Assembly: GCA_037443565.1 (NCBI GenBank)
Contig: JBBIOB010000001.1
Coordinates: 97,774-161,773 of the forward strand
DNA from: Armatimonadota bacterium
GTDB lineage: Bacteria > Sysuimicrobiota > Sysuimicrobiia > Sysuimicrobiales > Humicultoraceae
Reading direction: 5' to 3'
DNA: 64,000 nt
Shown: in pieces, positions 13,071 to 33,334 of the stretch
How the letters are laid out: each line of letters begins with the position of its first letter
Position numbering within the stretch: position 1 is the stretch's first letter
Program-made: the position numbers and the translations under genes
The notes under the pieces: generated by a model
Seen by the model: only the letters and a program-made list of their open reading frames with translations
The model's database searches: none
What the model was told of the DNA's origin: nothing

Positions 13071-13091
13071 TGTCAGGTGGCGCGCAGCCCC

Positions 13092-17402: not shown

Positions 17403-18188
17403 TTACGTCCCTGCCCGCCGCCGGAGGAACTCGGTCGACATGCCCAGGGCCACGGTGAGGACGATGAAGACGACCGAGATGGCGTTGATGGTGGGCGAGA
17501 GGCCGAGCCTCACCGTGGTGTAGATCTGAATCGGGAGCGTCGTGTCGTTCCCGATGAGGAAGAACGTGGTGTTGAAGTTGTCAAAAGAGAGCAGGAACGC
17601 GACGACGCACGCGGCCACGATGGCGGGACGCAGGTACGGCAGGGTGATGAGGAGCACGGCGCGCAGGGGCGTAGCCCCCAGATCCTGTGCCGCCTCTTCG
17701 AGCGAGCGGTCGAACTTCTGGAGGCGTGCCGAGGCGATGAGCAAGACGAACGACGCGATGAACGATGTCTGACCCAGCACCGCCGTCGGCAGACCGGCCC
17801 GCAGGCCCAGGCTGTCGAAGAAGATCAGCATCGATACCCCCAGGATGACGCCCGGGGTGACCAGCGGCGAGAGTACGAGGGCATAGAGGAGTCCTTTGCC
17901 GGGGAACCGGTACCGCACCAGCAGGAACGCGGTCGTCACACCCAGCGGAATCGAGAGGGCGACCACCGCCAGTCCGACGAGGACGCTGTTGCCCACCGCG
18001 CGGAGCAGCAGCGGGTCCTGGACGATCGCGGCGAACCACTGCAGGGTGAGCCCGCGCCAGGGGAACTGCGGCATGGCGCTGTCGTTGAAGGCGAGCGCGG
18101 CGACCACCGCCAGCGGCACATAGAGATACAGGAGGAAGATGCCCACGTAGAGCAGGGTGGTCACCCGGGCGAGCCACCGCGCCGTCAT
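17403..18188 (-). CDS. ABC permease (PotC/PotI-like)
   Basis: 262 aa from the ATG at 18188 (MTARWLARV...). Six TM helices and an EAA motif region (SLEEAAQDLGATPLR). Confidence 0.8.
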   Translation of the reverse strand: MTARWLARVTTLLYVGIFLLYLYVPLAVVAALAFNDSAMPQFPWRGLTLQWFAAIVQDPLLLRAVGNSVLVGLAVVALSIPLGVTTAFLLVRYRFPGKGLLYALVLSPLVTPGVILGVSMLIFFDSLGLRAGLPTAVLGQTSFIASFVLLIASARLQKFDRSLEEAAQDLGATPLRAVLLITLPYLRPAIVAACVVAFLLSFDNFNTTFFLIGNDTTLPIQIYTTVRLGLSPTINAISVVFIVLTVALGMSTEFLRRRAGT

Positions 18189-19063: not shown

Positions 19064-20181
19064 CAGGGCTCTCCCTCGGGCAGGGCATAGGCGTCCTCGC
19101 TGGAGAACGTGACCGTCGCCGGTCCCCCCACCGCGGGCAGGACGGTAGTGCCCACATTCGGAACGACTACCGCCATCTGACGGCCGCTGGCTAGCCGCAC
19201 GCGCATCCGAACCACCGGCCCCTCGTAGAAGACCTCCTCAAGCGTCCCCCGCAGGGCGTTGGCGCCTCCGGGGGTCTCGACGCCGGGCTCGTTCCCTGCG
19301 ACACACCGCAGCTTCTCGGGGCGGACGAACACCAGGCCCTGACGGCCGGCCTCGAGCCGTTCGGGGTTCCGGCAGACCAGCCGGCCTTCGGGGGTCTCCA
19401 CGACGACGCGCCCGTCCTCGACCGCGACGGTCCGGCCCGCGATGGCGTTGTTCTCGCCGACGAAGTACGCGACGAACTGCGTCTGCGGCTGCTCATAGAT
19501 CTCCGCCGGCGTGCCGATCTGCTCGATGCGGCCGCGGCTCATCACCGCGACCCGGTCCGACATCGCCAGGGCTTCACCCTGGTCGTGCGTAATGTAGATG
19601 AACGTTGTGCCCACGCGGTGCTGGATGGCCTTGAGCTCTTCCTTCATGTGCTCGCGCAGCTTGAGGTCCAGGGCGCCCAGCGGCTCGTCGAGCAGCAGCA
19701 CGGTCGGCTCGATGATGAGCGACCGGGCGATGGCCACCCGCTGCTTCTCGCCCCCCGACAGCTCATCGACGCGCTTGCTCCCATACCCGGGAAGGTTGAT
19801 GAGGTCGAGCTTGGCCGCCACGCGTGTGGCGATCTCACGCTCGGACACCCCGCGCATCCGCAGGCCGAAGGCGATGTTGTCGTACACGTTCATCAGCGGG
19901 AAGAGGGCGAGGTGCTGGAAGATCAGGCTGGTGGGCCGGCGGTTGGGTGGCACGCCCCGCATCGGCCGGCCGCCGATCAGGATCTCCCCTTCGTCGGGAT
20001 CGATGAATCCCGAGATCATGCGGAGGATGGTGGTCTTGCCGCACCCGCTGGGGCCGAGGATCGAGAAGAACTCGCCTCGGCCCACGTCGAGCGCGACGCC
20101 GGCGACCGCCGTGATATCGTGGTAGCGCTTGGTGACGTTGACGAGCTCGACGTCGACGTCGCGCCGGTGGGGATCGCTCAC
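19063..20181 (-). CDS. ABC transporter ATP-binding protein (PotA-like)
   Basis: Walker A GPSGCGKTT, LSGGEKQRV, LLLDEP, ITHDQ. C-terminal TOBE-like domain. Confidence 0.85.
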   Translation of the reverse strand: MSDPHRRDVDVELVNVTKRYHDITAVAGVALDVGRGEFFSILGPSGCGKTTILRMISGFIDPDEGEILIGGRPMRGVPPNRRPTSLIFQHLALFPLMNVYDNIAFGLRMRGVSEREIATRVAAKLDLINLPGYGSKRVDELSGGEKQRVAIARSLIIEPTVLLLDEPLGALDLKLREHMKEELKAIQHRVGTTFIYITHDQGEALAMSDRVAVMSRGRIEQIGTPAEIYEQPQTQFVAYFVGENNAIAGRTVAVEDGRVVVETPEGRLVCRNPERLEAGRQGLVFVRPEKLRCVAGNEPGVETPGGANALRGTLEEVFYEGPVVRMRVRLASGRQMAVVVPNVGTTVLPAVGGPATVTFSSEDAYALPEGEP

Positions 20182-20232
20182 AGGACACCGGATGGGAACC
20201 GGGGAGGCGGCGGAGCCGCCTCCCCGGTGATA

Positions 20233-21426
20233 CTAGGCCGCCTTCAGCCGGTCCACGTACCCGGCGAACATATTCAGCCACCAGGTGTGCTCGATGCCGT
20301 ACCACCAGAGGTTCCTGATGTCCTCGGGCGTGAACGACTCCTCGTACTGCTTCTTGATCGCCGGATCGAGGTGCGCCGCGGCGCCGTCGATAGCCGTGAA
20401 GTAGCCGCTCTCTTTCGTGAACAACGCCGCGTTGCTCGGATCGTACATGAAGTTCATCCACGCGTAGGCGGCGTCGAGGTTCGTCGCGCCCCTGGGGATG
20501 GCGAAACCGTCCATCCAGGTCATGGCGCCTTCCTTGGGAGCCACGAACTTGATGTCATGCCCGGCGCGGTCGAGCTTCCAGCCGGTGCCGTCCCAGGTCT
20601 GCGCGATCCACACCTCTTCCGTGGTGAGGAGCTTCTCGATCTCAGCGGCCGTGGCCCAGTAGGTCTTCACGTTCTTCTTCTTGCTGATGAGGAAGGCGAG
20701 AATCCGGTCGAGGATCGGCCGGGCCCTCTCCTCGCTCACGTAGACGTCGCGCATGCGGTTCCCCAGCCCCATCCACAGGCCGGTCGAGACGAACACGTGG
20801 AAGGTCGCCCGATAGGCCACCCGCCCGGCGAACTGATCCTGGTGGACCGAGCCGTACGAAGTCGGCCGGCGGGGAATCCTGAAGGTGTTGTGGGAGATCC
20901 CTTCGGTGCCCCAGTCGAAGGGGAGCCCGTACCGTCTGCCCCTCGACATGCCGCCGAGGTCCTCGGAGGCCTTGACCATGCTGGGAATCAGGTTCCTGAA
21001 GTTGGGGATTCGCCGTTCGTCAACCGTCTGGTAGAGGTTGAAGTCGAGCGCGGCCGGAATCAAGGTGACCGAGGGCTGGACCAGATCGTAGCCGGTGGCG
21101 CGCGTGGCCCTGAGCTTGCTGATCAGCTCGCCGTTACTGGCGTAGTAGGTGACCCGCACACTGTAGCCGGTCTCCTGCTCGAACTTCCTGACCAGGGGGG
21201 TCGGCGCGTAGCCTTCCCAGGTGAACAGGTTCAGCGTCCTGGCCGGCGCGGACTGCACCCGCTCCGGCCACGCGAGCGTTCGGCCCAGCACCGCCGCCGC
21301 GCCCGAGGCCAGGCCGGCCTTGAGCACGGTCCGCCGGGAGAGCTTGGCTTCCAGAGATCTGGAGCCATAGATGCCATCGGACATGATCCCACCCCATTCC
21401 CGGATGAGCTGCCGTGCACCTGTCAA
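20233..21426 (-). CDS. Periplasmic polyamine/amine-binding protein (PotD/PotF family) with a Tat-type signal
   Basis: 397 aa; SRRTVLKAGLASGAAAVLG is twin-arginine-like; PotD/PotF-like fold length and composition. The true start may be the internal Met at about 21384. Confidence 0.7.
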   Translation of the reverse strand: MTGARQLIREWGGIMSDGIYGSRSLEAKLSRRTVLKAGLASGAAAVLGRTLAWPERVQSAPARTLNLFTWEGYAPTPLVRKFEQETGYSVRVTYYASNGELISKLRATRATGYDLVQPSVTLIPAALDFNLYQTVDERRIPNFRNLIPSMVKASEDLGGMSRGRRYGLPFDWGTEGISHNTFRIPRRPTSYGSVHQDQFAGRVAYRATFHVFVSTGLWMGLGNRMRDVYVSEERARPILDRILAFLISKKKNVKTYWATAAEIEKLLTTEEVWIAQTWDGTGWKLDRAGHDIKFVAPKEGAMTWMDGFAIPRGATNLDAAYAWMNFMYDPSNAALFTKESGYFTAIDGAAAHLDPAIKKQYEESFTPEDIRNLWWYGIEHTWWLNMFAGYVDRLKAA

Positions 21427-21483: not shown

Positions 21484-22158
21484 CTAGGCGCGGCCGGCCG
21501 CGCGCATCTGTTCGACGAACTGGATGGCCAGGTTTACCCCGTCCTGTGCCGTCTCGCCGTAGCCATCCGCCTGGATCTTCCGGCAGTAGGCCTCTGTGAC
21601 CGGCCCGCCACCGACCATGATCGTGTGTGTCTCGCGTATGCCGCGGGCATCGAAGAACTCGATCACCTCGCGCATCGACGGCATGGTCGTGGTCATGAGG
21701 GCTGAGAGCCCCACGATCTGGGCGCCGGTCTCCTCGGCCTTCTCCACGAACTTCCCGGGGTGCACGTTCACCCCAAGGTTGTGGACCTCGAAGCCCGCGA
21801 CCTTGAGCAGCGTCCCGAACAGGTCCTTGCCGATCGAGTGGACGTCGCCCTTGACGGTGCCGATCACGGCCACGCCGCGCTTCAGCCGGCCTTCACCCAT
21901 GGCCATGATGGCCGGTTCCAGGACCTTCATCGCCTCCAGGAAGACCTTGGCGGCCATCATCAGCTCGGGCAGAAAGATCTCCATCGCCTGGAACTTCTGG
22001 CCGATGATCGCGATGCCGCGCGACAGGCCGTCGTCGATGAGTTTCAGGGGAGGAATGCCCGCGTCCAGGCCCTTCTGGACCAGGCGCGCGCCCGCCTCGG
22101 CGTCGTAGTCGAGGACCGCCTCTCTCAGACCTTCGAGGATCGCTGCTTCATCACTCAT
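21484..22158 (-). CDS. Corrinoid (cobalamin)-binding protein of a methyltransferase system (MtmC/MttC/MetH B12-domain-like)
   Basis: 225 aa from the ATG at 22158. N-terminal four-helix cap plus a Rossmann B12-binding domain with a DxHxxG His-ligand motif (GDVHSIGKD) and GxxG loops. Confidence 0.75.
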   Translation of the reverse strand: MSDEAAILEGLREAVLDYDAEAGARLVQKGLDAGIPPLKLIDDGLSRGIAIIGQKFQAMEIFLPELMMAAKVFLEAMKVLEPAIMAMGEGRLKRGVAVIGTVKGDVHSIGKDLFGTLLKVAGFEVHNLGVNVHPGKFVEKAEETGAQIVGLSALMTTTMPSMREVIEFFDARGIRETHTIMVGGGPVTEAYCRKIQADGYGETAQDGVNLAIQFVEQMRAAGRA

Positions 22159-22175
22159 GGTCTCCTCCACGGCTG

Positions 22176-23549
22176 TTACCGGAGCGGCAGCCCGAGCCGT
22201 CGCAGATCTTCCTTGGCCTCGGCGTAGACAGCGTAGTGCTGCGGCGTAGGAGTCAGCGTGTCCAGATTGTAGCAGTCCTGGAACCGGTACCCTTCGGGCG
22301 GGTTGTCCAGGTGCGACTCGTACCGGGCGAGCAGCGTTGTGACGATCTCGTTGGCCTCCCGCCGGCCGAGCCCCGCGGCCGCGTGGGCTACCTCGCAGGC
22401 GAACCGCATCTCCATGGGGCTGTAGTTGTCCAACAGGACGCCCTTCGCCGGATGGACCGTCTCGATGTTGGCGCCCGAGACGACGTCGGTGATGATGCGG
22501 GCCGCGGTCTCGTCGTAGAGCTGCGGCGTGGCGGTGCCCGCGGCGGCGTACCCCAGGTCGAAGTACGGGAACCGCATGTTGCGGCTCACGGCCTGGCAAC
22601 CCAGGGCCACGCTGGTCAGCATCTCGCGCGCCGTGGAGTTGGACTGCTGGATGTGGAGCGAGTACAGTAGGTGGTAGGTGGCGCCGACCAACAGCGGCCC
22701 GGCCATGATGTACGCGGCATTGAGCACCGCCGAGCCGATCACCCCTCCGGCGAACCCGCCGTAGATGGCGCCGGCGGCGAACCCCACGTTGCCGCCGAAC
22801 GACAGGACGGCGGCCGTCTTGTTCATCACGTTGTAGTCCAGTTTCATCTCCGACAGTGACACGATCAACCATCCGTCGGAGGGGCGCAGGCCGTATTCGG
22901 AATTCGTGACGGCGAGCACCCCCATCGGCGAGGCCGAGCTGGAGAGCAGGTTGATGATCGGCAGGCCCGGCCTACCGGCGCGGCGCATGGACTCCCGCCC
23001 CAGGCGCACCGACTGGATGGCGGCGTAGATCTCCGACGGCGCGCCCGCCTGCACTGGCATCCCGCGAATCTGGGTCAGCGCCGGGATGCTCATGGAGTCG
23101 GCGTGCGGGATCCGCGCGTAGCCTTCCACCACGGCCGAGGCGATCTCGTCCGACGACACCGGGATGCCGCCGCCGACATGACACCAGGGAATCTGGGAGT
23201 CCTCGGGCCGGCGGGGCCGCATGAACTTCGCCTCTTTGCCTTCGCCCAGCGGACACTGCGTCGGCGCCAGGTGGATCGCCTCGTCGAGCTCTTCCCGCGA
23301 GAAGGTGATGACCCGGTTGGTGTCCGGGCAGTATGCGCCCGTCTCCACCAGGAAGTCGCCGGCGGCCAGAAAGATCCGATCGGCCAGATCGTCGTCCCAG
23401 GGGATGACGACATCCCTGGGTGGCGCGGTGAGCCCATGCTTCTTGATCGCCTTCTGGAGGTTTGGGACGAACCGCTGCATGTCGAAATCGTCGGGTGCGA
23501 CGATCGGTCCCATCGCCGCGCGCCGGCAGATCTCCAGGAAGCTCACCAT
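22176..23549 (-). CDS. MtmB-family methyltransferase (monomethylamine methyltransferase homolog) WITHOUT the pyrrolysine codon
   Basis: 457 aa, length matches archaeal MtmB (458 aa). Aligns by eye over the full length to M. barkeri MtmB: YCPDTNRVITFSREELDEAI vs YCTDTHRIVKYTEDEIWDAI; RRAGRPG vs AMAGRPG; C-terminus YRFQDCYNLDTLTPTPQHYAVYAEAKEDLRRLGL vs KTFQECYDVKTVTPTEEYMQVYDGARKKLEDLGL. At the Pyl position (MGV-O-GPE in MtmB) this protein reads LPIINLL with no in-frame TAG. RBS AAAGGAG lies 7 nt before the ATG at 23549. Confidence 0.8.
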   Translation of the reverse strand: MVSFLEICRRAAMGPIVAPDDFDMQRFVPNLQKAIKKHGLTAPPRDVVIPWDDDLADRIFLAAGDFLVETGAYCPDTNRVITFSREELDEAIHLAPTQCPLGEGKEAKFMRPRRPEDSQIPWCHVGGGIPVSSDEIASAVVEGYARIPHADSMSIPALTQIRGMPVQAGAPSEIYAAIQSVRLGRESMRRAGRPGLPIINLLSSSASPMGVLAVTNSEYGLRPSDGWLIVSLSEMKLDYNVMNKTAAVLSFGGNVGFAAGAIYGGFAGGVIGSAVLNAAYIMAGPLLVGATYHLLYSLHIQQSNSTAREMLTSVALGCQAVSRNMRFPYFDLGYAAAGTATPQLYDETAARIITDVVSGANIETVHPAKGVLLDNYSPMEMRFACEVAHAAAGLGRREANEIVTTLLARYESHLDNPPEGYRFQDCYNLDTLTPTPQHYAVYAEAKEDLRRLGLPLR

Positions 23550-23570
23550 GGCTGGCTCCTTTCGTCTCTG

Positions 23571-24503
23571 TCAGGTGCGACGCCTGCGCACCGCCGCGGC
23601 GATGAGCCGGATGTGCTCGGGCGTGCTGCCGCAGCAGGCACCGACGATGTTGGCCCCGGCGTCGAGGATCGCGGGATACGCCCCTGCCATCGCCTGAGGC
23701 GACAGGTCGTACACGGTGCGATCGTCCACGATCTTGGGCATCCCGGCGTTGGGATACGCCGCCAGCCGGCCGGAGGTTACCCCCCGCATCTCCCGGATGA
23801 TGACCGCGGCGCGGACCGGACCGCCCTCCCCGCAGTTGCAGCCCACGATGTCCGCGCCCGCGTCGAACAGCAGCCGTGCGACGTCCGTCGGCGTCGAGCC
23901 CCACAGCGTCCGGTCTATGCCCTTCCGGGCGCTATACTGGAAGAACATCGTGGCCATCACGGGCAGGTCGGCGGCGGACTTCGCGGCCTTGATGGCGGTC
24001 ACGACCTCATCGGGGACCATCATCGTCTCCACGGCGAAGAGGTCTACGCCGCCCTCGGCCAGCGCAACGGCCTGCTCGGTGAAGTTGGCGCGCATCTCGT
24101 CCAGCGAGGTGTCGCCCATTGCCGCGAGCGTGTCGGGGAGATGCCCTGTCGGTCCGATCGACCCTGCCACGTACTTCCCCGGTGGGCAGACGGCGCGCGC
24201 CAGGCGCGCGGCCATGATGCTCAGGTCGCGCGCCCGTCCCTGCAGCTCGTAGGGCGCCAGCTTGAGGCGTGTGCCGCCGAACGTATTCGTCTCGACGATG
24301 TCGGCGCCGGCGTCGAAGTAGGCCCGGTGAATGCCGGAGACCACCTCGGGGTGGGTTTCGTTCCACAGCTCCGGGCAGGCGCCATCGACGAGGCCGGCCT
24401 CGAACAGCATCGTGCCCATGGCGCCGTCGAGGACCAGCACCTCGGAGGTCAACCGGTCGAGCAGCTCGCGCCCTCTCGGATGCATATCCCGTCCCTCACT
24501 CAA
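23571..24503 (-). CDS. Homocysteine/thiol S-methyltransferase domain protein (MetH Hcy-binding module as a separate protein)
   Basis: 310 aa. N-terminal VLVLDGAMGTML, zinc-ligand motifs GCNCG and GACCGSTPEHI as in the MetH/BHMT Hcy-binding barrel. Confidence 0.75.
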   Translation of the reverse strand: MSEGRDMHPRGRELLDRLTSEVLVLDGAMGTMLFEAGLVDGACPELWNETHPEVVSGIHRAYFDAGADIVETNTFGGTRLKLAPYELQGRARDLSIMAARLARAVCPPGKYVAGSIGPTGHLPDTLAAMGDTSLDEMRANFTEQAVALAEGGVDLFAVETMMVPDEVVTAIKAAKSAADLPVMATMFFQYSARKGIDRTLWGSTPTDVARLLFDAGADIVGCNCGEGGPVRAAVIIREMRGVTSGRLAAYPNAGMPKIVDDRTVYDLSPQAMAGAYPAILDAGANIVGACCGSTPEHIRLIAAAVRRRRT

Positions 24504-26355
24504 ACCGTAACGCCGTCAGAAACGCGTCCTGGAACTCAGGATGCGTTGCCAGCGAAACGTGTCTGATCTGTCCGGCCAGCGCGTCGGCGCGCCGGCGCTC
24601 GGTCTCGGAGACCAGGGCCATCTGCGCGCCCAGGCCCGCGGCGTTGCCGACGTAGCTCACGCGGTCGGCCGGCATCCGCGGGATGAGGCCGATTCGAATC
24701 GCGCTGCGGATGTTCAGGTAGTTGCCGAATCCGCCGGCCAGCATCAGCTCCGCGAGGTGATCCGCGGGTGTGCCGCTCAGGCGCTGCAGCATCGCGAGCC
24801 CGCTTCGGATCGCGCCCTTGGCGAGCTGCACCTGGCGGATGTCCGCCTGCGTCAGGACGATGTCCCTGCCCGTGGCGCTCTGGGACCCGGGCGCCAGGAC
24901 AAACGCTGGGAGCCCGTCGGGCAATGTGATGATGCGGCGGCGCAGCGCGTCAGGCACGGCTCCGGACGGCTCGGGGTGCAGCCGGCCTGTGGCGTCCACG
25001 ACCCCCGCGTCGAGCAGGCCGGCGATCGCATCGAGGATCCCCGAGCCACACACCCCCAGGGGTGATCCCGCGCCGATCACGTGGGAATCCACATCCTGCT
25101 CGATGCGGACCTGATCGATGGCGCCCCGGGCGGCGCGCATGCCGCACTGGAGCTGTGCACCTTCCAGCGCGGGTCCCGCAGGAGCCGAGCAGGCCGTCAG
25201 GCCGTCCGTGGACGCGAGGACCATCTCGCCGTTCGTGCCGATGTCCACGGCGATCCGGGGTTCGCGGCTCTCGTCGAGCCGGGTGGACAGGACCATGCCC
25301 ACGGCATCCGCGCCCACGAAGCCCGCCACGATGGGCAGCAGGAAGATGGGCGTCGGCGGACGCAGGCGCAGCCCCACCTCGGCGGCGGTGACTTTGACGC
25401 TCCGCCGGACGGCGGGCGCATACGGCGCCTGACCGACATAGGTGGGGTCGATGCCCAGGAAGAGGTGATGCATCACCGTGTTCCCCACGACGACGCCCTT
25501 GTAGATACGATCGCGATCGACGCCGGCCCTGGCGCACGCGTCCTCGATCTGCTCGTTCAGCATCCGGATGATACGGGTGTGGAGCTGACGAACGTTCGAT
25601 GGGCCTTCCTGCGCGAAGGCGATCCGTGACATCAGGTCGCCGCCGAAGGCCGCCTGAGCGTTGAGGCCGGATGCGGTGGCCGCCACGACCCCGCTCGCCA
25701 GATCCACCAGATACCCGACAACCGTCGTCGTGCCGATGTCAAAGGCGATGCCGTAGGCCTCGGCACGAGTGTCCCCGGGTTCGGCGGCCAGCAGCGTGCG
25801 GTTGAAGCGCGCCAGGGTGAAGCCGGCGGGCTGCGATCGCAGCAGCAACGGGATGCGCCGGAGCGCCTCGAGGGACGCGTCGGCCACCTCCCCCTCGAGG
25901 CGGCGCAGCACCGCTTCCAGGTCCGAGTCGGGGCGATCCTCGTCGGACGGTGGCAACGCGGTGACGAACATCTTGTGCACACCTGAATCCAGGGTGAACC
26001 CCGCCGCCGAGCGCAGCGTCCGGGTCTCGGCCAGGATCTGAAACGCGGTCTCTTCGAAGATCGGCGCGGCCGCGACCGTCAGATCGCCCCAGGCTTCGGT
26101 CTGGCAGGCCAGGCGGTAGCGCTCTCTTACCTCGTCGTCGCCGAGTTGGATCCGGTCGGCCAGCCCGGCCGGCGGCGGGTTTCCGGCGACGATCTGCACC
26201 CGGCAGCTCCGGCAGCGGCCGCGCGCCCCGCAGGTCGCCACGATCTCGCACCCAGCCTGCTGCGCCGCCTGGAGGATCGTCGTGCCCACGGGCACATGCA
26301 CCCGGTATCCGTTGGGCGCAAACACGACGGTGACCGTGGTGCCGGTCATGGCCAT
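24496..26355 (-). CDS. RamA/RACo-like reductive activator of corrinoid proteins (N-terminal 2Fe-2S ferredoxin plus ASKHA ATPase domain)
   Basis: 619 aa. N-terminal plant-type ferredoxin motif CGARGRCRSCRV, then a large actin-like ATPase region (DIGTTTV..., DIGTNGE...) as in COG3894 activators. Confidence 0.7.
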   Translation of the reverse strand: MAMTGTTVTVVFAPNGYRVHVPVGTTILQAAQQAGCEIVATCGARGRCRSCRVQIVAGNPPPAGLADRIQLGDDEVRERYRLACQTEAWGDLTVAAAPIFEETAFQILAETRTLRSAAGFTLDSGVHKMFVTALPPSDEDRPDSDLEAVLRRLEGEVADASLEALRRIPLLLRSQPAGFTLARFNRTLLAAEPGDTRAEAYGIAFDIGTTTVVGYLVDLASGVVAATASGLNAQAAFGGDLMSRIAFAQEGPSNVRQLHTRIIRMLNEQIEDACARAGVDRDRIYKGVVVGNTVMHHLFLGIDPTYVGQAPYAPAVRRSVKVTAAEVGLRLRPPTPIFLLPIVAGFVGADAVGMVLSTRLDESREPRIAVDIGTNGEMVLASTDGLTACSAPAGPALEGAQLQCGMRAARGAIDQVRIEQDVDSHVIGAGSPLGVCGSGILDAIAGLLDAGVVDATGRLHPEPSGAVPDALRRRIITLPDGLPAFVLAPGSQSATGRDIVLTQADIRQVQLAKGAIRSGLAMLQRLSGTPADHLAELMLAGGFGNYLNIRSAIRIGLIPRMPADRVSYVGNAAGLGAQMALVSETERRRADALAGQIRHVSLATHPEFQDAFLTALRFE

Positions 26356-26379
26356 CGACTCGGGAGGATCATGGATCGG

Positions 26380-27009
26380 TCAGGCATCAGCACGGGAGGC
26401 CGGGATCAGGCCGTAGATCCCGGTGATGGACTTCCGCGGCAGCATCACACATGACTCGGTCAGGTGCACCGACAGGTCGCCGCCTGCAAACGTCGAGAAC
26501 AACACTCGCTGCTGGTCCAGGGGCCAGTCCGCAAAGCCCGGCGCTGTGCGCCCGGTCAGGCGTAGCCCGCGTGCGGCGGCCTCGGCCCGCAGCCTGTCCC
26601 GCAGCTGCCCGGTCAGCGCCTCCAGCGCGACCCATCCCGCTGTGTCGAGCAGTAGCCCGTCGGCGAATTGTTCCTCCGCAATCAACGCCTGTACGCGGCC
26701 TTCCAGCGCCGGTCCAATGGTCAGGATGACGAGCACGGCCTCAGTGGCGTCATGGAGGAGCCGTGCCAGGGCGCGGCTGGTGAACTCGGTCCCGTCGGCC
26801 AGGCGCACGCAGCCGTCGGGTTCGGCGCGGCTCACCGGTTCCCGCCGCATCCACCCGCGCGGCACCACCAGCGCCTCGGCCAGCGATGCCATCCGGCGCG
26901 CCGTCTCACTGACGACCGGGGCGATCCTGTCAAGATCCCGGTACTTCTGCAGCCGCAGGATGAGATCCGGATCCACGCGCGGCCGTTGGAGGTCCAGATT
27001 CTCGACCAT
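26380..27009 (-). CDS. Methionine synthase reactivation (AdoMet-binding) domain homolog, standalone
   Basis: 209 aa. C-terminal APGFADWPLDQQRVLF...LTESCVMLPRKSITGIYGL parallels E. coli MetH RPAPGYPACPEH...LTESFAMWPGASVSGWYF. Confidence 0.6.
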   Translation of the reverse strand: MVENLDLQRPRVDPDLILRLQKYRDLDRIAPVVSETARRMASLAEALVVPRGWMRREPVSRAEPDGCVRLADGTEFTSRALARLLHDATEAVLVILTIGPALEGRVQALIAEEQFADGLLLDTAGWVALEALTGQLRDRLRAEAAARGLRLTGRTAPGFADWPLDQQRVLFSTFAGGDLSVHLTESCVMLPRKSITGIYGLIPASRADA

Positions 27010-27012
27010 GGC

Positions 27013-27888
27013 TCAGCCTGACGACCGCGGGCCTCCTCCTGCCGCTCTGGCCGCCGGCGGCGTCTTCATGAAGTCTAACGTCCCGGCGCGCACGCCGGCC
27101 AGGTAGCGGCGGCAGAACTCGTCCTGCCCTAGCAGCATCTGGGCCGTGGTCAGGTTGGCCATCAGCCTCCGGTCGAGCGGATCGAGGATGAACGCGTCCA
27201 TGCCGTGCGCCATACACAGGACGAGGAACACCTGATTGATCTGGGCGCGATAGGGCAGCCCGAACGAGACGTTGCTGAGCCCGCAGATCGTCCGCACCTC
27301 GGGAAACCGCGCCTTGATCAGGTCCAGCGCCCCCAGGAAGACCACGGCAGACCGGCTGTCCGTCGCGATGGGGAACAGCAGCGGGTCGACGAGGATGTCG
27401 TGCGGCGGCACCCCGACCGCGGTGAGGCCATCGATCAGCCTGGACGCGAACTCCAGCTTGCCCGCGGCCGTGGACGGAATCCCCTGGTCGTCCATGCACA
27501 GGGCCACGACCTCCGGCTGGAACTCCTGGATCACCGGCAGGAGGGCCGCCCACCGGTCCTGCTCCAGGTTGATCGAGTCCAGCAGGGCCTTGCCCCGGTG
27601 CACCTCGAGGCCCCGGCGCAGCGCGATCGGGTTGGGGCTGTCGATGCTGATCCGCACGTCGAGGGCGTCCTGGATGGTCCGCACGGCCCACTCCATGCAC
27701 GCGACCTCGTCCTCCATCAACGTCGCGCAGTTGACATCCACCAGGTGCGCGCCGGCCTCGACCTGCCGCCGGGCGAGATCGACGATGGCTGCGGCATCGC
27801 GGGCTTCCAGCAGCGGCTGGATCTGCTTGCGGGTGGAGTTGATGAGCTCGCCGACGATCAGCGTGGCCGGTCCTCCGGATGTCTTCCA
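27013..27888 (-). CDS. Methyltetrahydrofolate:corrinoid methyltransferase (pterin-binding MeTr/MtrH/MetH folate module); start codon unresolved
   Basis: TLIVGELINSTRKQIQ...EAGAHLVDVN is the canonical pterin-binding (DHPS-like) barrel N-terminus. No ATG/GTG/TTG lies in frame between the upstream gene stop (27858) and the domain start. The only in-frame starts are over 150 nt upstream, inside the MetF-MetV gene. GGAGGA plus a 9-nt spacer precedes a CTG at about 27864. Confidence 0.6.
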   Translation of the reverse strand, partial: WKTSGGPATLIVGELINSTRKQIQPLLEARDAAAIVDLARRQVEAGAHLVDVNCATLMEDEVACMEWAVRTIQDALDVRISIDSPNPIALRRGLEVHRGKALLDSINLEQDRWAALLPVIQEFQPEVVALCMDDQGIPSTAAGKLEFASRLIDGLTAVGVPPHDILVDPLLFPIATDSRSAVVFLGALDLIKARFPEVRTICGLSNVSFGLPYRAQINQVFLVLCMAHGMDAFILDPLDRRLMANLTTAQMLLGQDEFCRRYLAGVRAGTLDFMKTPPAARAAGGGPRSSG

Positions 27889-29444
27889 GACACCATTTCC
27901 AACCTCACCAGTCGCATGCCTCCTCCTTGGAAGTGGGTGACCCAGGAGCAGGTGTTCCGGCTCTCTTCGGGGACCGGAGGGATCAAGACCTCTTCCAGGT
28001 CGGCCAGCCGGCCGGCCTTCCTGGACAGACGGTAGATCCCGTTGTGGATGCACTCCCGATCGCCGAACTCGCAGATGCCGTCGTGCGTGCCGCCGCACGG
28101 TCCGTTCGCCAGTCCCTTCGGACAGGTCTCCGGGCAGACGTACGCGGTGGCCGGGAGCCGGCAGGAGCCGCACCCCCGGCAGCCGACCAGCGGGCGTTTG
28201 ATCGCCAGCTCAAGCATGAGCAGGAACCCGTCCGACCCGAACCGGGCGCCGAGCCCCCGGACCAAAGGCCCCACCACGCGCGCGCCCGGTGAGCCGTCGT
28301 GGAAGGCGAGACGGTCGACCAGGTCCAGCGCGCGGAACCGCAGCGACTCGCCGAGTCTTGGGCCGATATTGCCGTCGAGCGTGCCCGCATCCAGGTACAG
28401 ACCGTGCTCGGGCGCGACCTGCGCCTGCCGGTCATCGGCGAATGTCAGCGCCCGCCGCCAGGCCCTCTGCCAGTCCTCGAGGGTCGGGCATTCCGTCGCG
28501 ACGCCGTCGACCGTGTCGAGCAGCCGGGCGACCTTCGAATAGGTGTGAAGGCCGCTGATCTGCGCCCCGGCATAGCCCATCAGACGCGCGCCCACCACCT
28601 GCAGCGCCAGACGTCGGTACGCCGCATCCCGGCCACTGTCGGGCGCGCGCGACTCTTCCTCGAGCTTCTCGGCCAGGTCATTGGTGATCGTCACGCCGGG
28701 CAGGCCCACCTGACGGATGCGACGGCACCGGCCGGGCGTGAGGAAGAGCAATCCCGCCAGTAGCGGGGCGGGATATCCCCGGCCGGCGAGGACCCGGCGC
28801 GCCTCCTCAAGCTTGCACATGTCCCAGCCGATCTGCGTGACCAGGAAGTCGGCGCCCGCCCGCAGCTTCTTGCCTGCCTTGAGGTACTGATTCAGCAGGT
28901 CTTCTTCACGGTACTTGAATGGACAGACCGCCGCGGCCAGAAGACAGGCGCCGGAGTGCTGTCGGGCGGCCCGAAGGGCGTGCACCGAGTCCAGATACCG
29001 CACCGGCCGGTCGGCGGGCGGCGCCTTCAGGCCGTCTCCGGTGACGAGCAGGAACGTGTCGAGCCCCAGCGCTCCGGCCCGCCGCAGGTGCTCCTCCAGG
29101 TTGTGCAGGCTGCGATCCTTGCCGGCCAGGTGGACGATCGGCATCGCACCGGAGACCTCCAGGACCCTGTGGCCGATCGCGACCGGATCGTGGTCGTGGT
29201 CGGATCGGCTGCGGTCGGTCAGGGCGAGCGCGGCGATCCTGGGGTCACCTCGGATCGCCTTTGCCAGGGCAAGGATGGGCGCCACGGCGCCGTCGAAGGG
29301 CTCGCTCGCCACCGGCGACGCGTACTCGATCGTGATCGCGAACCGGCCGGCGGCCAGCGCCGCGCACAAGCGGTGGGTGCCCGCCTGCCGGAGCACGTCG
29401 CTCATCTGGGACGTAACGTACGGAGGGGGCGATACCCGGGGCAA
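27858..29444 (-). CDS. Methylenetetrahydrofolate reductase MetF domain fused to an MTHFR C-terminal (MetV-like, Cys-rich) domain
   Basis: 528 aa. N-terminal FAITIEYASP and the MTHFR barrel. C-terminal CRGCGSCRLPATAYVCPETCPKGLANGPCGG is the MetV-type zinc-ribbon domain. The start may be the internal Met at 29402. Confidence 0.7.
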   Translation of the reverse strand: MPRVSPPPYVTSQMSDVLRQAGTHRLCAALAAGRFAITIEYASPVASEPFDGAVAPILALAKAIRGDPRIAALALTDRSRSDHDHDPVAIGHRVLEVSGAMPIVHLAGKDRSLHNLEEHLRRAGALGLDTFLLVTGDGLKAPPADRPVRYLDSVHALRAARQHSGACLLAAAVCPFKYREEDLLNQYLKAGKKLRAGADFLVTQIGWDMCKLEEARRVLAGRGYPAPLLAGLLFLTPGRCRRIRQVGLPGVTITNDLAEKLEEESRAPDSGRDAAYRRLALQVVGARLMGYAGAQISGLHTYSKVARLLDTVDGVATECPTLEDWQRAWRRALTFADDRQAQVAPEHGLYLDAGTLDGNIGPRLGESLRFRALDLVDRLAFHDGSPGARVVGPLVRGLGARFGSDGFLLMLELAIKRPLVGCRGCGSCRLPATAYVCPETCPKGLANGPCGGTHDGICEFGDRECIHNGIYRLSRKAGRLADLEEVLIPPVPEESRNTCSWVTHFQGGGMRLVRLEMVSGRHPEDRPR

Positions 29445-29474: not shown

Positions 29475-30725
29475 TTACTTCTGGAGGTACCGGACCGCCG
29501 CTTCTGTGCGCGTGTGGACCTGGAGCTTGTCGAAGATGCTCCGCAGATGGCCGTGAACCGTCCAGGCACTGATCCCGAGCCGCTGGGCGATCTCCTTGTC
29601 CACATATCCCTTGCTCAGGGCCTCGAGAATCTCTTGCTCGCGGGGCGTCAGTTGGGCCATGGTGCGAGTCTCGTCCCCGGCCGGCGCGTCGAAGAGGCTC
29701 TGGAAGTAACGACGGATGCGCTGGGAGACCTGCACCATCCGCATCGTCGGCGCCAAAGGAAGCCCCAGGGGTTCCAGCAGCAGCCCGGGCGGTCGTCGGC
29801 GGAGGATGTACCCGGCGCGCACGCCGCCGAAGGAGAGGAACAGGCGATCGCTGTCGCTGTACGTGCCGTAGGTGAACACGGGAAGGTCTGGATGCCGGGT
29901 GCGCAGTCCCTCGGCGCACGCGCTTGCGCCGATGCCTGGAAGGTCTCGGTTGAGCAGCACAAGCGCAGGTCTGACGTCCGAGGTGAGTCGAAGCGCCTCT
30001 TCAGCGGCGGCCAGGATCGCGACGGTCAATCCCGGAGGGTGGCGTTCGACGCACGAGGCCAGCGTGCGGCCCACACCCGGGTCAGCCTCCACGATCCAGA
30101 CCACGCCTTCACGTGTCGGCTCGGTGCGCCTGCTCAGGCCGTCCGGATTCCCTTCGGGAGTCGTGACGAGGGTTCCGTAGGTGCAGGCCAGGGGGTCCAT
30201 CGCCCAGAGGACGGCGACGGTGAGCTCCCGCGGAAACCGCTCCCTGGCCGCCGACCACCCGGCCGTCAGGATGGTGCGGTAGATCGTGGCCGCCCGCCGC
30301 GCCGCGTCTGTTCGCGTTGCGGTCCCCAAAGCGAAGTAGTGGCCTTCACCGTCATGCTCAATCCGCGCCGAAAACTCGCCTGGGTGCGCGGGCCTGAGGC
30401 CCTCGGTGTACCGGCGCACCAGGAGCCGGCGACTCCAGTACCTGGCCTGATCCCTCACGGCGGCAGGAGGCGCCGGCGCGATACGCGGCCGGGATTGCGC
30501 GATCGCGGCATCCCATCCCCGGGTGAGGATGGCGCGGAAGAGCGCACGTGCGCGCCTCGCCGCCTCGATGCGCGGCCCCGCGCCGAGCGAGACGGTATGC
30601 CGCCGTCCCTGATGCTGGATCTTGACCGACCAGCCCCGCACGCGGAGCAGTCGGCCGCCCCGGGTGTACGAGTTCCTGAACACCCGTCGGGTCCAGTAGC
30701 CGATGCTTGGACTCTGCTTGGACAT
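29475..30725 (-). CDS. LuxR-family transcription regulator: two tandem AP2-like DNA-binding domains, a degenerate receiver domain and a LuxR HTH
   Basis: C-terminal LTPREQEILEALSKGYVDKEIAQRLGISAWTVHGHLRSIFDKL is a LuxR HTH. The central REC-like fold has N at the phospho-acceptor position (LVLLNRDLPG). Two N-terminal repeats (YWTRR...FSVKIQHQGRRHTVSLGAG...AARRA...ILTRGW and YWSRR...FSARIEHDGEGHYFALGTA...AARRA...ILTAGW) resemble AP2/integrase-type domains. Confidence 0.65.
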   Translation of the reverse strand: MSKQSPSIGYWTRRVFRNSYTRGGRLLRVRGWSVKIQHQGRRHTVSLGAGPRIEAARRARALFRAILTRGWDAAIAQSRPRIAPAPPAAVRDQARYWSRRLLVRRYTEGLRPAHPGEFSARIEHDGEGHYFALGTATRTDAARRAATIYRTILTAGWSAARERFPRELTVAVLWAMDPLACTYGTLVTTPEGNPDGLSRRTEPTREGVVWIVEADPGVGRTLASCVERHPPGLTVAILAAAEEALRLTSDVRPALVLLNRDLPGIGASACAEGLRTRHPDLPVFTYGTYSDSDRLFLSFGGVRAGYILRRRPPGLLLEPLGLPLAPTMRMVQVSQRIRRYFQSLFDAPAGDETRTMAQLTPREQEILEALSKGYVDKEIAQRLGISAWTVHGHLRSIFDKLQVHTRTEAAVRYLQK

Positions 30726-30880
30726 GAACTGGCAGCATCGTACCACATCTCCGCGCCCATCTGCCCGGCCCGGGGACACCTGGCGGCGCCCCCGGTCCCT
30801 TGGACGGGCTATTGTTGCGGCGCGCGGCCTCCCTGTACAGTGGGGTGGGTCGAAGGAGTAGACGACGCAGAGGAGGATCC

Positions 30881-33328
30881 GTGAAGTCTGAGGCGCAGGC
30901 GGTCATCATCGGTGGCGGGGTCTATGGGTGCAGCATCGCGTATCACCTCACCCGGATGGGGTGGCGCGACGTCGTGCTGGTGGAGAAAGGTGGGCTGACG
31001 GGCGGCGCCACCTTTCACGCCGCCGGCCTGGTCGGGCAGCTCCGCGGCTCGGTGACGCTCACACGGATGATCATGTACAGCGTGGAGCTCTACCGCGCGC
31101 TGCTGGCGGAGACCGGCCACGATCCCGACTGGCGCGAGACCGGGAGCCTGCGGCTCGCGTCGACCCCTGAACGCATGATCGAGCTCAAGCGCCACGCGGC
31201 CACGGCCCGGACCTTCGGCCTGCCCATGGAGCTGCTGACGCCGAAGGAGGCGGTCGACCTCTTCCCGGTGATGAGCCCCGAGGGGCTGCTGGGCGCGGCA
31301 TATCTCCCCACGGACGGCAGCGTCGACCCCAATGGTCTGACCTTTGCCTTCGCCAGGGGTGCGAGGAACTACGGTGCGGAGATCTCCACCGAGACCGAGG
31401 TCACCGGGATCACCGTGCGGGACGGCCGGGTCCGGGGCGTCGTCACGAACCGCGGGACGATTCGGACCGACGTGGTGGTGAACTGCGCGGGAATCTGGGC
31501 GGCGACCATCGGAGCCATGGCGGGCGTCACGGTCCCGGTCGTCGGCATCGAGCACCAGTACCTCCTCACCGGCCCGGTCGAGGGGACGCACCGCCGCATG
31601 CCGGTGGTGCGCGATCCGGACCTGCTCATCTACTTCCGCGAAGAGGTCCGCGGGCTGTGCATCGGTGGCTACGAGGCCAACCCGATTCCCTTCGGGCTCG
31701 ATGGGATCCCTGACGACTTCCACCACCGTCTGCTCGCGCCCAACTGGGAGCAGTTCGAGCAGCTCGCGAAGAACGCCGCGATCCGCATTCCCGCCGTGGA
31801 GAAGGCCGGTGTGCACAAGCTTATCAACGGGCCCGACGGATTCACCCCTGACGGCGACCTGATCCTGGGCGAGGCCCCGGAGGTGCGAGGCTTCTTCGTG
31901 GCCGGAGGCTCTCCGGGCATCGCGTGCGGGGGCGGGGTCGGCAAGGTCATGGCCGAGTGGATCGTCGAGGGCGCGCCCGGTATGGACATGTGGCGCATGG
32001 ACGTCCGGCGCTTCCAGGCGCACTACGCGGACCGGCGCTACGCGGCCGCGCGGGCGCTGGAAACCTACGAGAAGAACTACCTCCTGCATCCGCCATATGA
32101 GGAGCGGGAGTCCGCGCGCGGGCTGCGCCTGAGCCCGCCGCATCCGCGCCTGCGGGCGCTTGGCGCAGCCTTCGGCGAGAAGGCGGGCTGGGAGCGGCCG
32201 AACTGGTTTGCCAGCAACGAACCGGCGCAGGCCGCGGGCACCCCCCACACTCCTGCGCCGGCAGACTGGGCGCCGGCCGGATGGGCACGGCTCAACTGGT
32301 CGCCGGCGATCGGTGTCGAGCACCGGGCGGTGCGGGAAGCGGCCGGCCTGTTCGACTTCACCTCGTTCAGCAAGTTCGAGATGGAGGGACCGGGTGCGCT
32401 CAAGACCCTGCAGTGGCTGACCGACAATCAGATGGACAAGCCGCCCGGCAGCGTGATCTACACTCAGATGCTCAATGCGCGCGGCGGGATCGAGTGCGAC
32501 CTGACCGTCACCCGCCTTTCGGCCGAGCGCTTCATGATCGTCACCGGGAGCGGTTTTGGGGTGCACGATCTCGACTGGATCCGGCGGCACCTGCCGGACG
32601 ACGGCTCGGCGGCGATCCGTGAGGTCACGGCGGAGCTGTCCTGCATCGGCGTGTGGGGGCCGAACGCGCGGGAGATTCTGCGGCGGGTATGCGACGACGA
32701 CGTTTCGAATGCGGCGTTTCCGTACATGACGTGCAGGGAGATTCAGATCGTCGGTGTGCCCGTGCGCGCTCAGCGCGTGACCTACGTGGGCGAGCTGGGC
32801 TGGGAGCTGTATGTGCCGATCGGAGATGGCCTGAAAGTCTGGGACGCGCTGTGGGAGGCGGGACGGCCGTTTGGGCTTCGGCCCATTGGCTATCGCGCCG
32901 TCGACTCGCTGCGGCTGGAGAAGGCATACCGCTACTGGAGCGTCGACATCACCCCCGAGTACACGCCCTATGACTCCGGCCAGGCGTTCTGCGTCAGGCT
33001 CGACAAGGGCGACTTCCAGGGCCGCGGGGCGCTGCTGCGGCAGAAGGCCGACGGGCTGACGCAGCGGCTCTGCTGCCTGGTGCTGGCCGACCCCCGAATC
33101 GTTGCGCTCGGGAACGAGCCGGTGTACGAGGCCGAGCGGGTGGTCAGCCGGGTGACGAGCGGTGGATACGGGTACACGGTCGGCGAGAGTATCGCCTACG
33201 CGTACCTACCGGTCGGCCTGTCGGCCGTCGGCACGGGGTTGGCTGTCAGCATCGACGGTGAACGTGTTCCGGCCACGGTGGCGCGCGAGCCGCGCTACGA
33301 TCCCGCGAACAGCCGGATCAAGGCCTGA
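30881..33328 (+). CDS. Dimethylglycine/sarcosine dehydrogenase family protein (FAD DAO domain plus GcvT-like folate-binding domain), paralog 1
   Basis: 815 aa from the GTG at 30881 (AGGAGG 4 nt upstream). GGGVYGCSIAYHL dinucleotide fold, FHAAGL (covalent-FAD His motif), C-terminal aminomethyltransferase fold. About 65% identity to paralog 2. Confidence 0.8.
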   Translation: MKSEAQAVIIGGGVYGCSIAYHLTRMGWRDVVLVEKGGLTGGATFHAAGLVGQLRGSVTLTRMIMYSVELYRALLAETGHDPDWRETGSLRLASTPERMIELKRHAATARTFGLPMELLTPKEAVDLFPVMSPEGLLGAAYLPTDGSVDPNGLTFAFARGARNYGAEISTETEVTGITVRDGRVRGVVTNRGTIRTDVVVNCAGIWAATIGAMAGVTVPVVGIEHQYLLTGPVEGTHRRMPVVRDPDLLIYFREEVRGLCIGGYEANPIPFGLDGIPDDFHHRLLAPNWEQFEQLAKNAAIRIPAVEKAGVHKLINGPDGFTPDGDLILGEAPEVRGFFVAGGSPGIACGGGVGKVMAEWIVEGAPGMDMWRMDVRRFQAHYADRRYAAARALETYEKNYLLHPPYEERESARGLRLSPPHPRLRALGAAFGEKAGWERPNWFASNEPAQAAGTPHTPAPADWAPAGWARLNWSPAIGVEHRAVREAAGLFDFTSFSKFEMEGPGALKTLQWLTDNQMDKPPGSVIYTQMLNARGGIECDLTVTRLSAERFMIVTGSGFGVHDLDWIRRHLPDDGSAAIREVTAELSCIGVWGPNAREILRRVCDDDVSNAAFPYMTCREIQIVGVPVRAQRVTYVGELGWELYVPIGDGLKVWDALWEAGRPFGLRPIGYRAVDSLRLEKAYRYWSVDITPEYTPYDSGQAFCVRLDKGDFQGRGALLRQKADGLTQRLCCLVLADPRIVALGNEPVYEAERVVSRVTSGGYGYTVGESIAYAYLPVGLSAVGTGLAVSIDGERVPATVAREPRYDPANSRIKA

Positions 33329-33334
33329 CGGTCC

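Follow-up and report, generated by a model that had tools for sequence, protein, structure and literature searches.

The stretch of DNA described here (64,000 nucleotides of contig JBBIOB010000001.1, assembly GCA_037443565.1, from an Armatimonadota bacterium placed by GTDB in the Sysuimicrobiota; hereafter the window) carries on its minus strand, at 21484-29444, seven genes that probably form a corrinoid-dependent methyl-transfer system. The system would be built around one dedicated corrinoid protein (CoP) and would feed methyl groups to homocysteine and, in this genome, also to tetrahydrofolate (THF). A probability of roughly 0.68 is assigned to this reading. It is supported by gene linkage, especially by related loci that hold a homocysteine methyltransferase (HcyMT) without a methyl-THF:corrinoid methyltransferase (MeTr), and by a precedent from Ruegeria pomeroyi.

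The window has a GC content of ~69%, and real genes were told from many spurious open reading frames (ORFs) by codon-position GC. Families were assigned by Pfam and NCBIfam profile scans, and the type of each module by sequence scores against proteins of the PDB. The preliminary description of the window, made from the letters alone, had reported seven co-directional and tightly spaced genes; this is borne out, with spacings between a 4-nt overlap and 24 nt. The profile scans also confirmed all families that it had named. In order from upstream to downstream the genes are as follows.

29444/29405-27858, minus strand: metFV, a metF-metV fusion (PF02219 52 bits, PF12225 75 bits; start TTG at 29444 or ATG at 29405)
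27861-27013, minus strand: MeTr, methyl-THF:corrinoid methyltransferase of the MtgA/AcsE type (NF005719 309 bits, cutoff 259)
27009-26380, minus strand: Act, stand-alone MetH activation-domain protein of the TM0269 type (1J6R profile and fold match)
26355-24496, minus strand: RACo, RACo/RamA-type activase with an N-terminal 2Fe-2S ferredoxin domain (PF14574 259, PF17651 191, PF00111 48 bits)
24485-23571, minus strand: HcyMT, MetH-type homocysteine S-methyltransferase (PF02574 232 bits)
23549-22176, minus strand: MtmB homolog, non-pyrrolysine (PF05369 291 bits, full length)
22158-21484, minus strand: CoP, corrinoid protein with cap and Rossmann domains (PF02310 89, PF02607 62 bits)

The putative substrate:corrinoid methyltransferase (MT1) of the set is the MtmB homolog. 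Its assignment to the MtmB family in the preliminary description was correct, as residues 5-454 match positions 4-450 of the 450 positions of PF05369. No match to PF06253 was found, and residues 9-454 align end to end with MtmB1 of M. barkeri (1L2Q, 195 bits). The ORF has no in-frame TAG/UAG, and the column of Pyl202 falls within 'GLPIINLL'. Because the ORF is uninterrupted and free of UAG-encoded pyrrolysine, the protein is classified by sequence as a non-pyrrolysine member of the family and is not to be filed as a monomethylamine methyltransferase. It lies in a tight clade (83-94% identity), beyond which identity falls to 50% or less; the highest identities outside the clade (49%) were found in two loci linked to PbfA and aminotransferase genes (L046 and L023). 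A neighbor-joining tree of 118 MtmB sequences, too crude for firm placement, pairs the window clade with a kinase-linked clade of Spirochaetota. Across phyla no other protein of the cluster comes close to MtmB in conservation, its identity among the close-clade loci (L002-L021 and L091) being 83-91% compared with 68-78% for RACo, 57-73% for Act and 57-67% for the LuxR-type regulator. This high identity suggests either unusually strong constraint or recent lateral transfer among Sysuimicrobiota, Methylomirabilota and Armatimonadota.

HcyMT scores 156-160 bits against the homocysteine domains of MetH, with that of T. maritima MetH as the best match (160 bits), compared with 64 bits against betaine-homocysteine methyltransferase (BHMT) and 61 bits against enzymes of the S-methylmethionine/MmuM type. 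Its zinc-ligand motifs GCNCG and GACCG, which hold the Zn-binding Cys triad, are intact. CoP is closest to corrinoid proteins of the methylamine type (7XCN 154 bits, 1Y80 139, MtmC 125; TIGR02370 197 bits and MtgC 190 bits in NCBIfam), with MetH B12 domains reaching at most 92 bits, and carries the motif DVHSIG (DxHxxG) at residue 105. MeTr scores 191 bits against 4O0Q, presumably MtgA of D. hafniense, and 174 bits against AcsE, compared with at most 113 bits against the pterin modules of MetH. The metFV gene is a single ORF of 515/528 aa, in which a divergent methylenetetrahydrofolate reductase (MTHFR) domain is followed by a Cys-rich PF12225 domain with eight Cys at residues 409-452, both domains scoring above cutoffs. 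Thus MetF and MetV are both present as had been described, in one fused protein rather than as separate genes, and the fusion recurs in L005 (521 aa) and L016. The earlier view of a methionine synthase taken apart into separate genes stands for HcyMT and Act, which are of the MetH type; it was rejected for CoP and MeTr, which by their scores are nearer to methylotrophic and acetogenic components. Since CoP and MeTr score nearest to methylotroph and acetogen proteins and the homocysteine module nearest to MetH, the system is classed from these scores as a methylotroph-style set of MT1, CoP, acceptor-side methyltransferase (MT2) and activase that has recruited a MetH-type homocysteine module and a TM0269-type activation module. 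An MT1, a methylamine-type CoP, a THF-type MT2 and an activase are encoded together, as in three-component methylotrophic corrinoid systems.

Two proteins of different types serve as candidates for reactivation of the corrinoid, as the preliminary description had stated. RACo was identified by PF14574, PF17651, PF00111 and Fer2 domains and by an AcsV-like NCBIfam profile (408 bits). For Act, a profile built from the family (36 homologs) matches the 214-aa stand-alone "methionine synthase" chain of PDB 1J6R with E = 1.4e-11. The AlphaFold2 model of Act (pLDDT 96.3) has 1J6R (T. maritima TM0269) as its top Foldseek match (E = 6e-12, TM 0.82/0.86), and the 18 matches ranked after it are all MetH activation domains. 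The family shares the motifs R-x-A-P-G-F/Y and LTExxxMxPxKSxSG. The modeled fold is that of the MetH activation domain, TM0269 type, and binding of S-adenosylmethionine (AdoMet) is predicted. The two proteins had been described as alternative reactivation routes. Both are indeed present; because their genes are adjacent in every operon variant that retains both, a single cooperative module would fit better than two alternatives.

Two gene starts required attention. The true start of CoP is at 22158 (224 aa) and not at the ORF start at 22872. MeTr has no ATG, GTG or TTG start (none between 28053 and 27741), and translation most likely starts at the CTG of 27861, within a CTGA that also holds the metFV stop codon. 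This CTG is the first codon of the conserved N-terminus LIVGELIN, and a GGAGGA Shine-Dalgarno sequence lies 9 nt upstream. The CTGA junction, again without a canonical start, is kept in L005 (4865) and L016 (3794), and the L005 record annotates MeTr from that CTG; in the loci without metFV, L008 (~5684) and L009 (~5689), MeTr starts with an ATG that lies five codons farther upstream. Because a strong Shine-Dalgarno sequence (AAGGAGG) and an ATG at 27917 stand in the metFV frame, the possibility of a frameshift or an error in the sequence was weighed as well; the conservation of the CTGA junction in L005 and L016 favors the CTG start. The ATG at 27917 would encode only a 19-aa tail in the metFV frame (junction 27858-27930).

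Related loci were collected by a scan of GTDB species genomes and by exact-protein look-ups. They number 18, which together with the window gives 19 close-clade loci (numbered with the prefix L), and derive from Ca. Fervidifonticultor (Ca. Sysuimicrobiota, formerly CSP1-3), Methylomirabilota/NC10, Armatimonadota and unclassified metagenome-assembled genomes (MAGs). Virtually all of the 18 related loci contain the full set of Act, RACo, HcyMT, MtmB and CoP, arranged in four gene orders.

Variant V1, LuxR-MetFV-MeTr-Act-RACo-HcyMT-MtmB-CoP: window, L005 and L016; L021 with fragmented metFV
Variant V2, as V1 without MetFV: L008 and L009
Variant V3, LuxR-Act-RACo-HcyMT-MtmB-CoP: L002/L004 and L019; L011 and L020 have the same core, no LuxR being detected upstream
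Variant V4, HcyMT-ABC-DMGDH-MtmB-CoP-Act-RACo: L013-L018 and L091

HcyMT is present in 16 of the 16 loci with an informative flank. MeTr was found in 6 of the 19 close-clade loci and is absent locally from the other 13, at least seven of which have none within ~10 kb of informative flank, so that HcyMT is the sole candidate MT2 there. An intact MetF-MetV fusion occurs in 3 of the 19 (window, L005, L016), and one decayed copy in L021. Because the core is near-invariant across these loci, with MeTr and MetFV at the frequencies given, the conserved functional unit is Act-RACo-HcyMT-MtmB-CoP and not a complete MetH, and MeTr and MetFV are optional. The clustering of these genes is far beyond chance, since the core recurs in 18 other loci and in at least three phyla. 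No HcyMT or Act was found near any of ~69 more distant MtmB loci. Between LuxR and an intact MeTr, L021 (4024-4996) has metFV in four fragments that together lack ~40% of the protein; the gene looks like a pseudogene caught between variants V1 and V2. Directly 3' of CoP, L002, L004 and L005 carry a small PF13769 ('Virulence_fact') gene (92-97 aa), where the window has an ABC transporter instead.

The following mechanism is proposed. An N-methylated amine would be imported, and would either be phosphorylated by an enzyme of the choline/ethanolamine kinase family or already bear a phosphate or phosphonate group. The non-pyrrolysine MtmB-family enzyme would act as MT1, demethylating the amine and methylating Co(I)-CoP. 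The MetH-type homocysteine module, the invariant partner in the clade, would then convert CH3-Co(III)-CoP and homocysteine to methionine. In this genome the MtgA/AcsE-type MeTr may also move the methyl group to THF, and MetF-MetV may oxidize CH3-THF to CH2-THF. As MeTr would be reversible, MeTr, CoP and HcyMT could also run as a split methionine synthase on CH3-THF. Oxidized Co(II)-CoP would be repaired by the always-adjacent pair of Act and RACo, RACo providing ATP-driven reduction and the TM0269-like Act probably trapping Co(I) through AdoMet-dependent methylation. Two adjacent enzymes that resemble dimethylglycine dehydrogenase (DMGDH-like, FAD/GcvT) probably strip the remaining N-methyl groups oxidatively. 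The branching of the methyl-corrinoid to homocysteine or to THF and MetVF, raised in the preliminary description, is retained as the most plausible mechanism; the MeTr/MetFV branch is confined to some loci.

The minus-strand array runs past the seven genes, with a LuxR gene upstream and transporter, kinase and hydrolase genes downstream to 10217. Around it lie the following features, some of which concern 2-aminoethylphosphonate (AEP).

10217..14117, minus strand: second ABC importer, with a PhnS2-like (AEP-type) binding protein (13092-14117), a fused permease (11370-13091) and an ATPase (10217-11368)
14324-15220, minus strand: PHP-domain metallohydrolase of the CehA/McbA family (NF038032 102 bits, cutoff 80)
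15204-16475, minus strand: MFS transporter
16468..17376, minus strand: choline/ethanolamine-kinase-family (APH) kinase (PF01636 74, PF01633 44 bits; PDB 3DXQ 106 bits)
17403..21426, minus strand: ABC importer, with a PotD/PotF-like binding protein with TAT signal (20233-21426), an ATPase (19063-20181) and permeases (18185-19063 and 17403-18188)
29475..30779, minus strand: LuxR-family regulator with a GerE helix-turn-helix and a weak receiver domain (PF00196 60 bits), directly upstream of the operon
30881..37109, plus strand: divergent unit of a DMGDH/sarcosine-dehydrogenase-like FAD+GcvT gene (30881-33328), a class-III aminotransferase like glutamate-1-semialdehyde (GSA) aminomutase (33335-34657) and a second DMGDH-like gene (34647-37109)
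37888..39027, minus strand: PhnW, AEP:pyruvate transaminase (NF010006 547 bits, cutoff 296; TIGR02326 496 bits, cutoff 401), possibly a downstream pathway
39024..43105, minus strand: PhnS2-type AEP ABC transporter, with a permease (39024-40802), an ATPase (40727-41935) and a binding protein (41936-43105; TIGR03261 445 bits, cutoff 393)
47229-49696: PbfA with a LysR regulator, the PbfA gene at 48320..49696, plus strand (NF049939 715 bits, cutoff 525)

The LuxR gene also heads the operon in L002, L005, L008, L009, L016, L019 and L021 (57-67% identity). The importer at 17403..21426 is specific to the operon variant of the window. The kinase, for which the top NCBIfam match is GntI-like (225 bits, below cutoff), is kept after CoP in L005, L008, L016 and L019 and occurs elsewhere in the locus in L011; the trio of kinase, MFS and PHP genes is found in L005, and kinase and MFS together in L008, L016 and L019. 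In L006, L027, L032 and L042, which are distant loci, CoP is followed by a PHP homolog. A second paralog of the choline/ethanolamine kinase family (5793-6719, plus strand) is 46% identical to the operon kinase, matches the GntI-like profile with 272 bits (below cutoff) and adjoins a LysE-type exporter (5079-5789). The binding protein of the second importer matches TIGR03261 with 265 bits, below the cutoff of 393; this importer has orthologs (50-57%) inside L013, L018 and L091, which are clusters of the Methylomirabilota type, and homologs next to distant MtmBs in L025, L030, L038 and L075. Of the 19 close-clade loci, 15 have an adjacent DMGDH-like gene, and the window has two. The aminotransferase has homologs of 56-64% identity that adjoin distant MtmBs in L023 (996), L030 (4655), L038 (1555) and L046 (1-708), all deltaproteobacterial MAGs; the MtmBs beside them are merely 44-49% identical themselves. 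Between the DMGDH-like unit and PhnW lie a gene for a PIN-domain toxin and, upstream of it, a small ORF that may encode the antitoxin (37178-37847, plus strand), and a PhdYeFM/PIN pair is present in L005. The window further contains a PEMT-like gene at 1949-2554, aldehyde dehydrogenases (ALDHs) of the betaine-aldehyde-dehydrogenase-like type that score below cutoffs, and a Cas3-like helicase ORF (PF22590, Helicase_C; 60437-63220, plus strand) in the end segment where GC falls to ~63% from 60 kb.

PhnW, the PhnS2 binding protein and PbfA of the window all score above the curated NCBIfam cutoffs and lie 8-20 kb from the operon. Orthologs of the gene at 48320..49696 (65-75% identity) stand beside 12 distant MtmB loci, and 18 of 66 distant loci have PhnW and/or PbfA no more than 10 kb from MtmB, often as its immediate neighbor. 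The arrangement is PhnW-PbfA-MtmB-MtmB in Planctomycetota and PhnW-PbfA beside MtmB-MtmB-CoP in Chloroflexota. In Syntrophaceae PbfA adjoins one to three MtmB paralogs, after which come CoP and MeTr, and in L025 a MetFV-like gene and a PhnS2-like transporter come next after PbfA/MtmB/CoP/MeTr. Tandem pairs or triplets of non-pyrrolysine MtmB beside PhnW and/or PbfA were recorded in L053, L054, L069, L070 and L076 (Planctomycetota), L031 and L034 (Chloroflexota), and L025 and L033 (Syntrophaceae); no corrinoid protein gene was found within the flank of those Planctomycetota loci. The literature searched yielded no publication that links MtmB or corrinoid enzymes to phosphonates.

The substrate may be a 2-aminoethyl phosphate or phosphonate in N-methylated form (phosphocholine or trimethyl-AEP, for example), a tentative proposal with somewhat less than even odds. 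It rests on the conserved kinase, the orthology of the PhnS2-like importer, the PhnW, PhnS2 and PbfA genes of the window and the 18 of 66 distant loci. Glycine betaine is rated clearly lower, and some other substrate takes the remainder. As background, MtqB, a non-pyrrolysine MtmB, acts on tetramethylammonium and choline (PMC13044021), and Eubacterium limosum demethylates phosphocholine after a kinase step by MthKBCA (PMC12155760). Zangelmi et al. (2023; PMC10590968) reported that the FAD enzymes of phosphonate clusters do not act on trimethyl-AEP, the oxygenase route being the sole one for this compound. The broader proposal, for which the odds are nearer one in three, is that the non-pyrrolysine MtmB family, including the window clade, consists of corrinoid-dependent enzymes that N-demethylate head groups of the 2-aminoethyl phosphate and phosphonate kind. 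Their substrates may include phosphocholine as well as trimethyl-, dimethyl- and monomethyl-AEP and the 1-hydroxy forms of these. If true, it would fill a present gap with a route for N-methylated phosphonates that needs no oxygen, feeding AEP or 1-hydroxy-AEP to PhnW or PbfA. Anaerobes would then use two to three tandem MtmB paralogs for successive methyl groups, and the window clade would use one MtmB and two DMGDH-like enzymes, the first methyl group being saved as methionine via the homocysteine module.

Among the other explanations of the locus, the most serious concerns the substrate. MT1 could be an MtmB-family analogue of MtgB acting on glycine betaine, in a pathway from betaine through dimethylglycine and sarcosine to glycine, with the phosphonate genes and kinases belonging to other pathways. 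The adjacency of DMGDH/sarcosine-dehydrogenase-like genes noted above, the betaine-aldehyde-dehydrogenase-like ALDHs and the frequent presence of genes for later betaine demethylation near published MtgBCD systems (PMC12478193) agree with it. It is nevertheless considered unlikely, as all known betaine:corrinoid methyltransferases are of the MttB family (PMC13044021), the DMGDH-like proteins reach no betaine-pathway equivalog, and betaine catabolism has no use for the conserved kinase, MFS and PHP genes or for the PhnS2-like transporter. A different view would take the homocysteine module, MeTr, CoP, Act and RACo as a housekeeping split MetH, with MtmB as a mere neighbor that feeds no methyl group in. 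All modules for methyl transfer from CH3-THF to homocysteine are present, and a split MetH with a RamA-like activase is already known (bioRxiv 10.1101/192971). However, MtmB is flanked by HcyMT and CoP at distances of 21 and 17 nt, this trio is kept together through four gene orders in at least three phyla, CoP belongs to the methylamine and not the MetH type, and MeTr, which MetH cannot do without, is missing locally from most loci; a scan of the window for riboswitches and tRNAs was likewise negative, with neither a SAM nor a B12 riboswitch found. The chances of this view are rated as slim.

Slimmer still is the case for a PF02574 protein that bypasses CoP and methylates homocysteine directly from betaine, S-methylmethionine or AdoMet, in the manner of BHMT, MmuM or YitJ. 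Partial NCBIfam matches to the YitJ N-domain (257 bits) and to PRK07534 'betaine-homocysteine S-methyltransferase' (214 bits) point that way, both below cutoffs; the preference for MetH homocysteine domains in the PDB scores, on which a direct BHMT or S-methylmethionine-type role was rejected, and the invariant linkage to MtmB, CoP, Act and RACo speak against it, and the alphaproteobacterial 'Bhmt' has itself been argued to be a corrinoid-dependent enzyme, MtgE (Mausz et al., PMC12478193). The least probable of these readings reverses the flux, with CoP loaded from CH3-THF, or from AdoMet via Act, and MtmB N-methylating an amine such as a phosphocholine-like or N-methyl-phosphonate head group. 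MT1 reactions are chemically reversible, and the kinase and the PEMT-like gene (1949-2554) represent head-group chemistry within the window; yet two importers, an MFS transporter, oxidative demethylase-like genes and the catabolic PhnW and PbfA surround the operon, and all characterized relatives are catabolic.

Several observations weigh against the preferred corrinoid-dependent methyl-transfer system or parts of it. On the experimental side, every catalytic step, the direction of flux, the cooperation of Act with RACo and the substrate have been inferred. Homocysteine as the acceptor of a catabolic flux needs turnover of methionine or AdoMet. MeTr could be encoded elsewhere in the genomes that have no local copy, so that HcyMT need not be the sole MT2. 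Act reaches only 21.1 bits with PF02965, below the cutoff of 25, its C-terminal part alone being matched, and its RxxxGY AdoMet motif has the form R-T-A-P-G-F, most members of the family having Phe in place of Tyr. Divergence is very strong in the MTHFR domain, which scores 52 bits in Pfam and ~30 bits against MTHFRs of solved structure (31 bits for 1V93 of T. thermophilus). Sites from a promoter and terminator scan were not above chance expectation and do not mark out the transcript. The clues to the substrate conflict, with the kinase pointing to phospho-esters, PhnW/PbfA/PhnS2 to phosphonates and the DMGDH-like genes classically to betaine. Finally, the window clade is just 38-50% identical to the phosphonate-linked MtmBs, and the genomic contexts of other MtmB family members are heterogeneous, some being unrelated. 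Within the 64-kb window no full-length metH, no metE, no DUF1638 and no second copies of MetH modules were found; the supplements of the Sysuimicrobiota paper give no metH or metE occurrences, and its main text does not mention the system.

The preliminary description knew of no described locus of this kind, a claim that is out of date. Split MetH with a RamA-like protein was defined earlier by Price et al. (bioRxiv 10.1101/192971), and a shared-corrinoid design was reported by Mausz et al. in 2025 (PMC12478193). In the genetics of R. pomeroyi in that work, both MtgC, the corrinoid protein, and MtgD, the pterin methyltransferase, are needed for betaine demethylation as well as for methionine synthesis; MtgB (MttB family) is MT1, MtgE the homocysteine module, MetF2 next to mtgD oxidizes CH3-THF, and RamA and DUF1638 serve reactivation. 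New here are an MT1 from the MtmB family, the pairing of RACo with a TM0269-type activation protein, the compactness of the operon and the host phyla.

The closest likeness is to MtgBCDE of Ruegeria pomeroyi, Phaeobacter inhibens and Sinorhizobium meliloti, which likewise has separate corrinoid, pterin and homocysteine proteins, an MT1 that shares the corrinoid protein, a MetF paralog beside the pterin methyltransferase, a RamA-like activase and DMGDH-like genes nearby. It differs in its MT1 (MttB family, PF06253, compared with MtmB family, PF05369) and in its DUF1638 partner, in place of which the window has a TM0269-type protein beside RACo, with no DUF1638 among the Pfam matches of the scanned window ORFs. 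The window in turn has MetF fused to a MetV-like domain and one operon with transporter and kinase genes; in its clade the homocysteine and not the pterin module is the invariant partner, and the hosts are MAGs of Sysuimicrobiota, Methylomirabilota and Armatimonadota.

Fused enzymes of related function are found in Methylobacterium, where cmuA/cmuB/metF/folD/purU, like the system proposed for the window, combine corrinoid demethylation in an aerobe with methyl transfer to THF by a pterin-type MT2 and oxidation by a dedicated MetF. In that chloromethane system CmuA fuses MT1 with the corrinoid domain, no homocysteine module is known, and the substrate is of another class. In T. maritima the homocysteine, pterin and B12 modules form one polypeptide (MetH, TM0268), and no MT1 is known. 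The 209-aa Act of the window shares the truncated activation-domain fold of its TM0269 (1J6R), with the TM scores given above. In the MetVF of acetogens, MetF and MetV are separate subunits, in contrast to the single fused ORF of the window.

MtqB/MtqC of Methanococcoides methylutens (Kashyap et al. 2026, PMC13044021) pairs a non-pyrrolysine MtmB-family MT1 with its cognate corrinoid protein, the likeness lying in the shared non-pyrrolysine status. MtqB acts on a quaternary amine, is the sole family member with demonstrated function, and belongs to an archaeal system that passes the methyl group to coenzyme M, whereas homocysteine and THF are the proposed acceptors here. MthK/MthB/MthC/MthA of E. 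limosum (Jiang et al. 2025, PMC12155760) resembles the window in that a kinase is encoded with an MT1, a corrinoid protein and a THF methyltransferase, the substrate being phosphorylated before demethylation. Unlike in the window, MthB is of the MttB family, MthK is related to serine kinases and not to the choline/ethanolamine kinase family, and neither a homocysteine module nor an activation-domain protein is present.

If the proposed mechanism is correct, a shared corrinoid hub that joins methyl-amine catabolism to methionine synthesis would not be limited to marine Proteobacteria or to MttB-type enzymes, and would have come together independently in uncultivated phyla of soil, groundwater and hot springs, with an MtmB-family enzyme at its center. 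The operon would also be a direct test case for the cooperation of a stand-alone AdoMet-type activation domain with a RamA/RACo ATPase. The linkage of the MtmB family to PhnW, PbfA and PhnS2-type genes bears on the oxygenase-free breakdown of trimethyl-AEP and related N-methyl phosphonates. Non-pyrrolysine MtmB comprises roughly a thousand sequences, one of which has a known function, and the operon of the window offers for this family a compact seven-gene system open to reconstitution.

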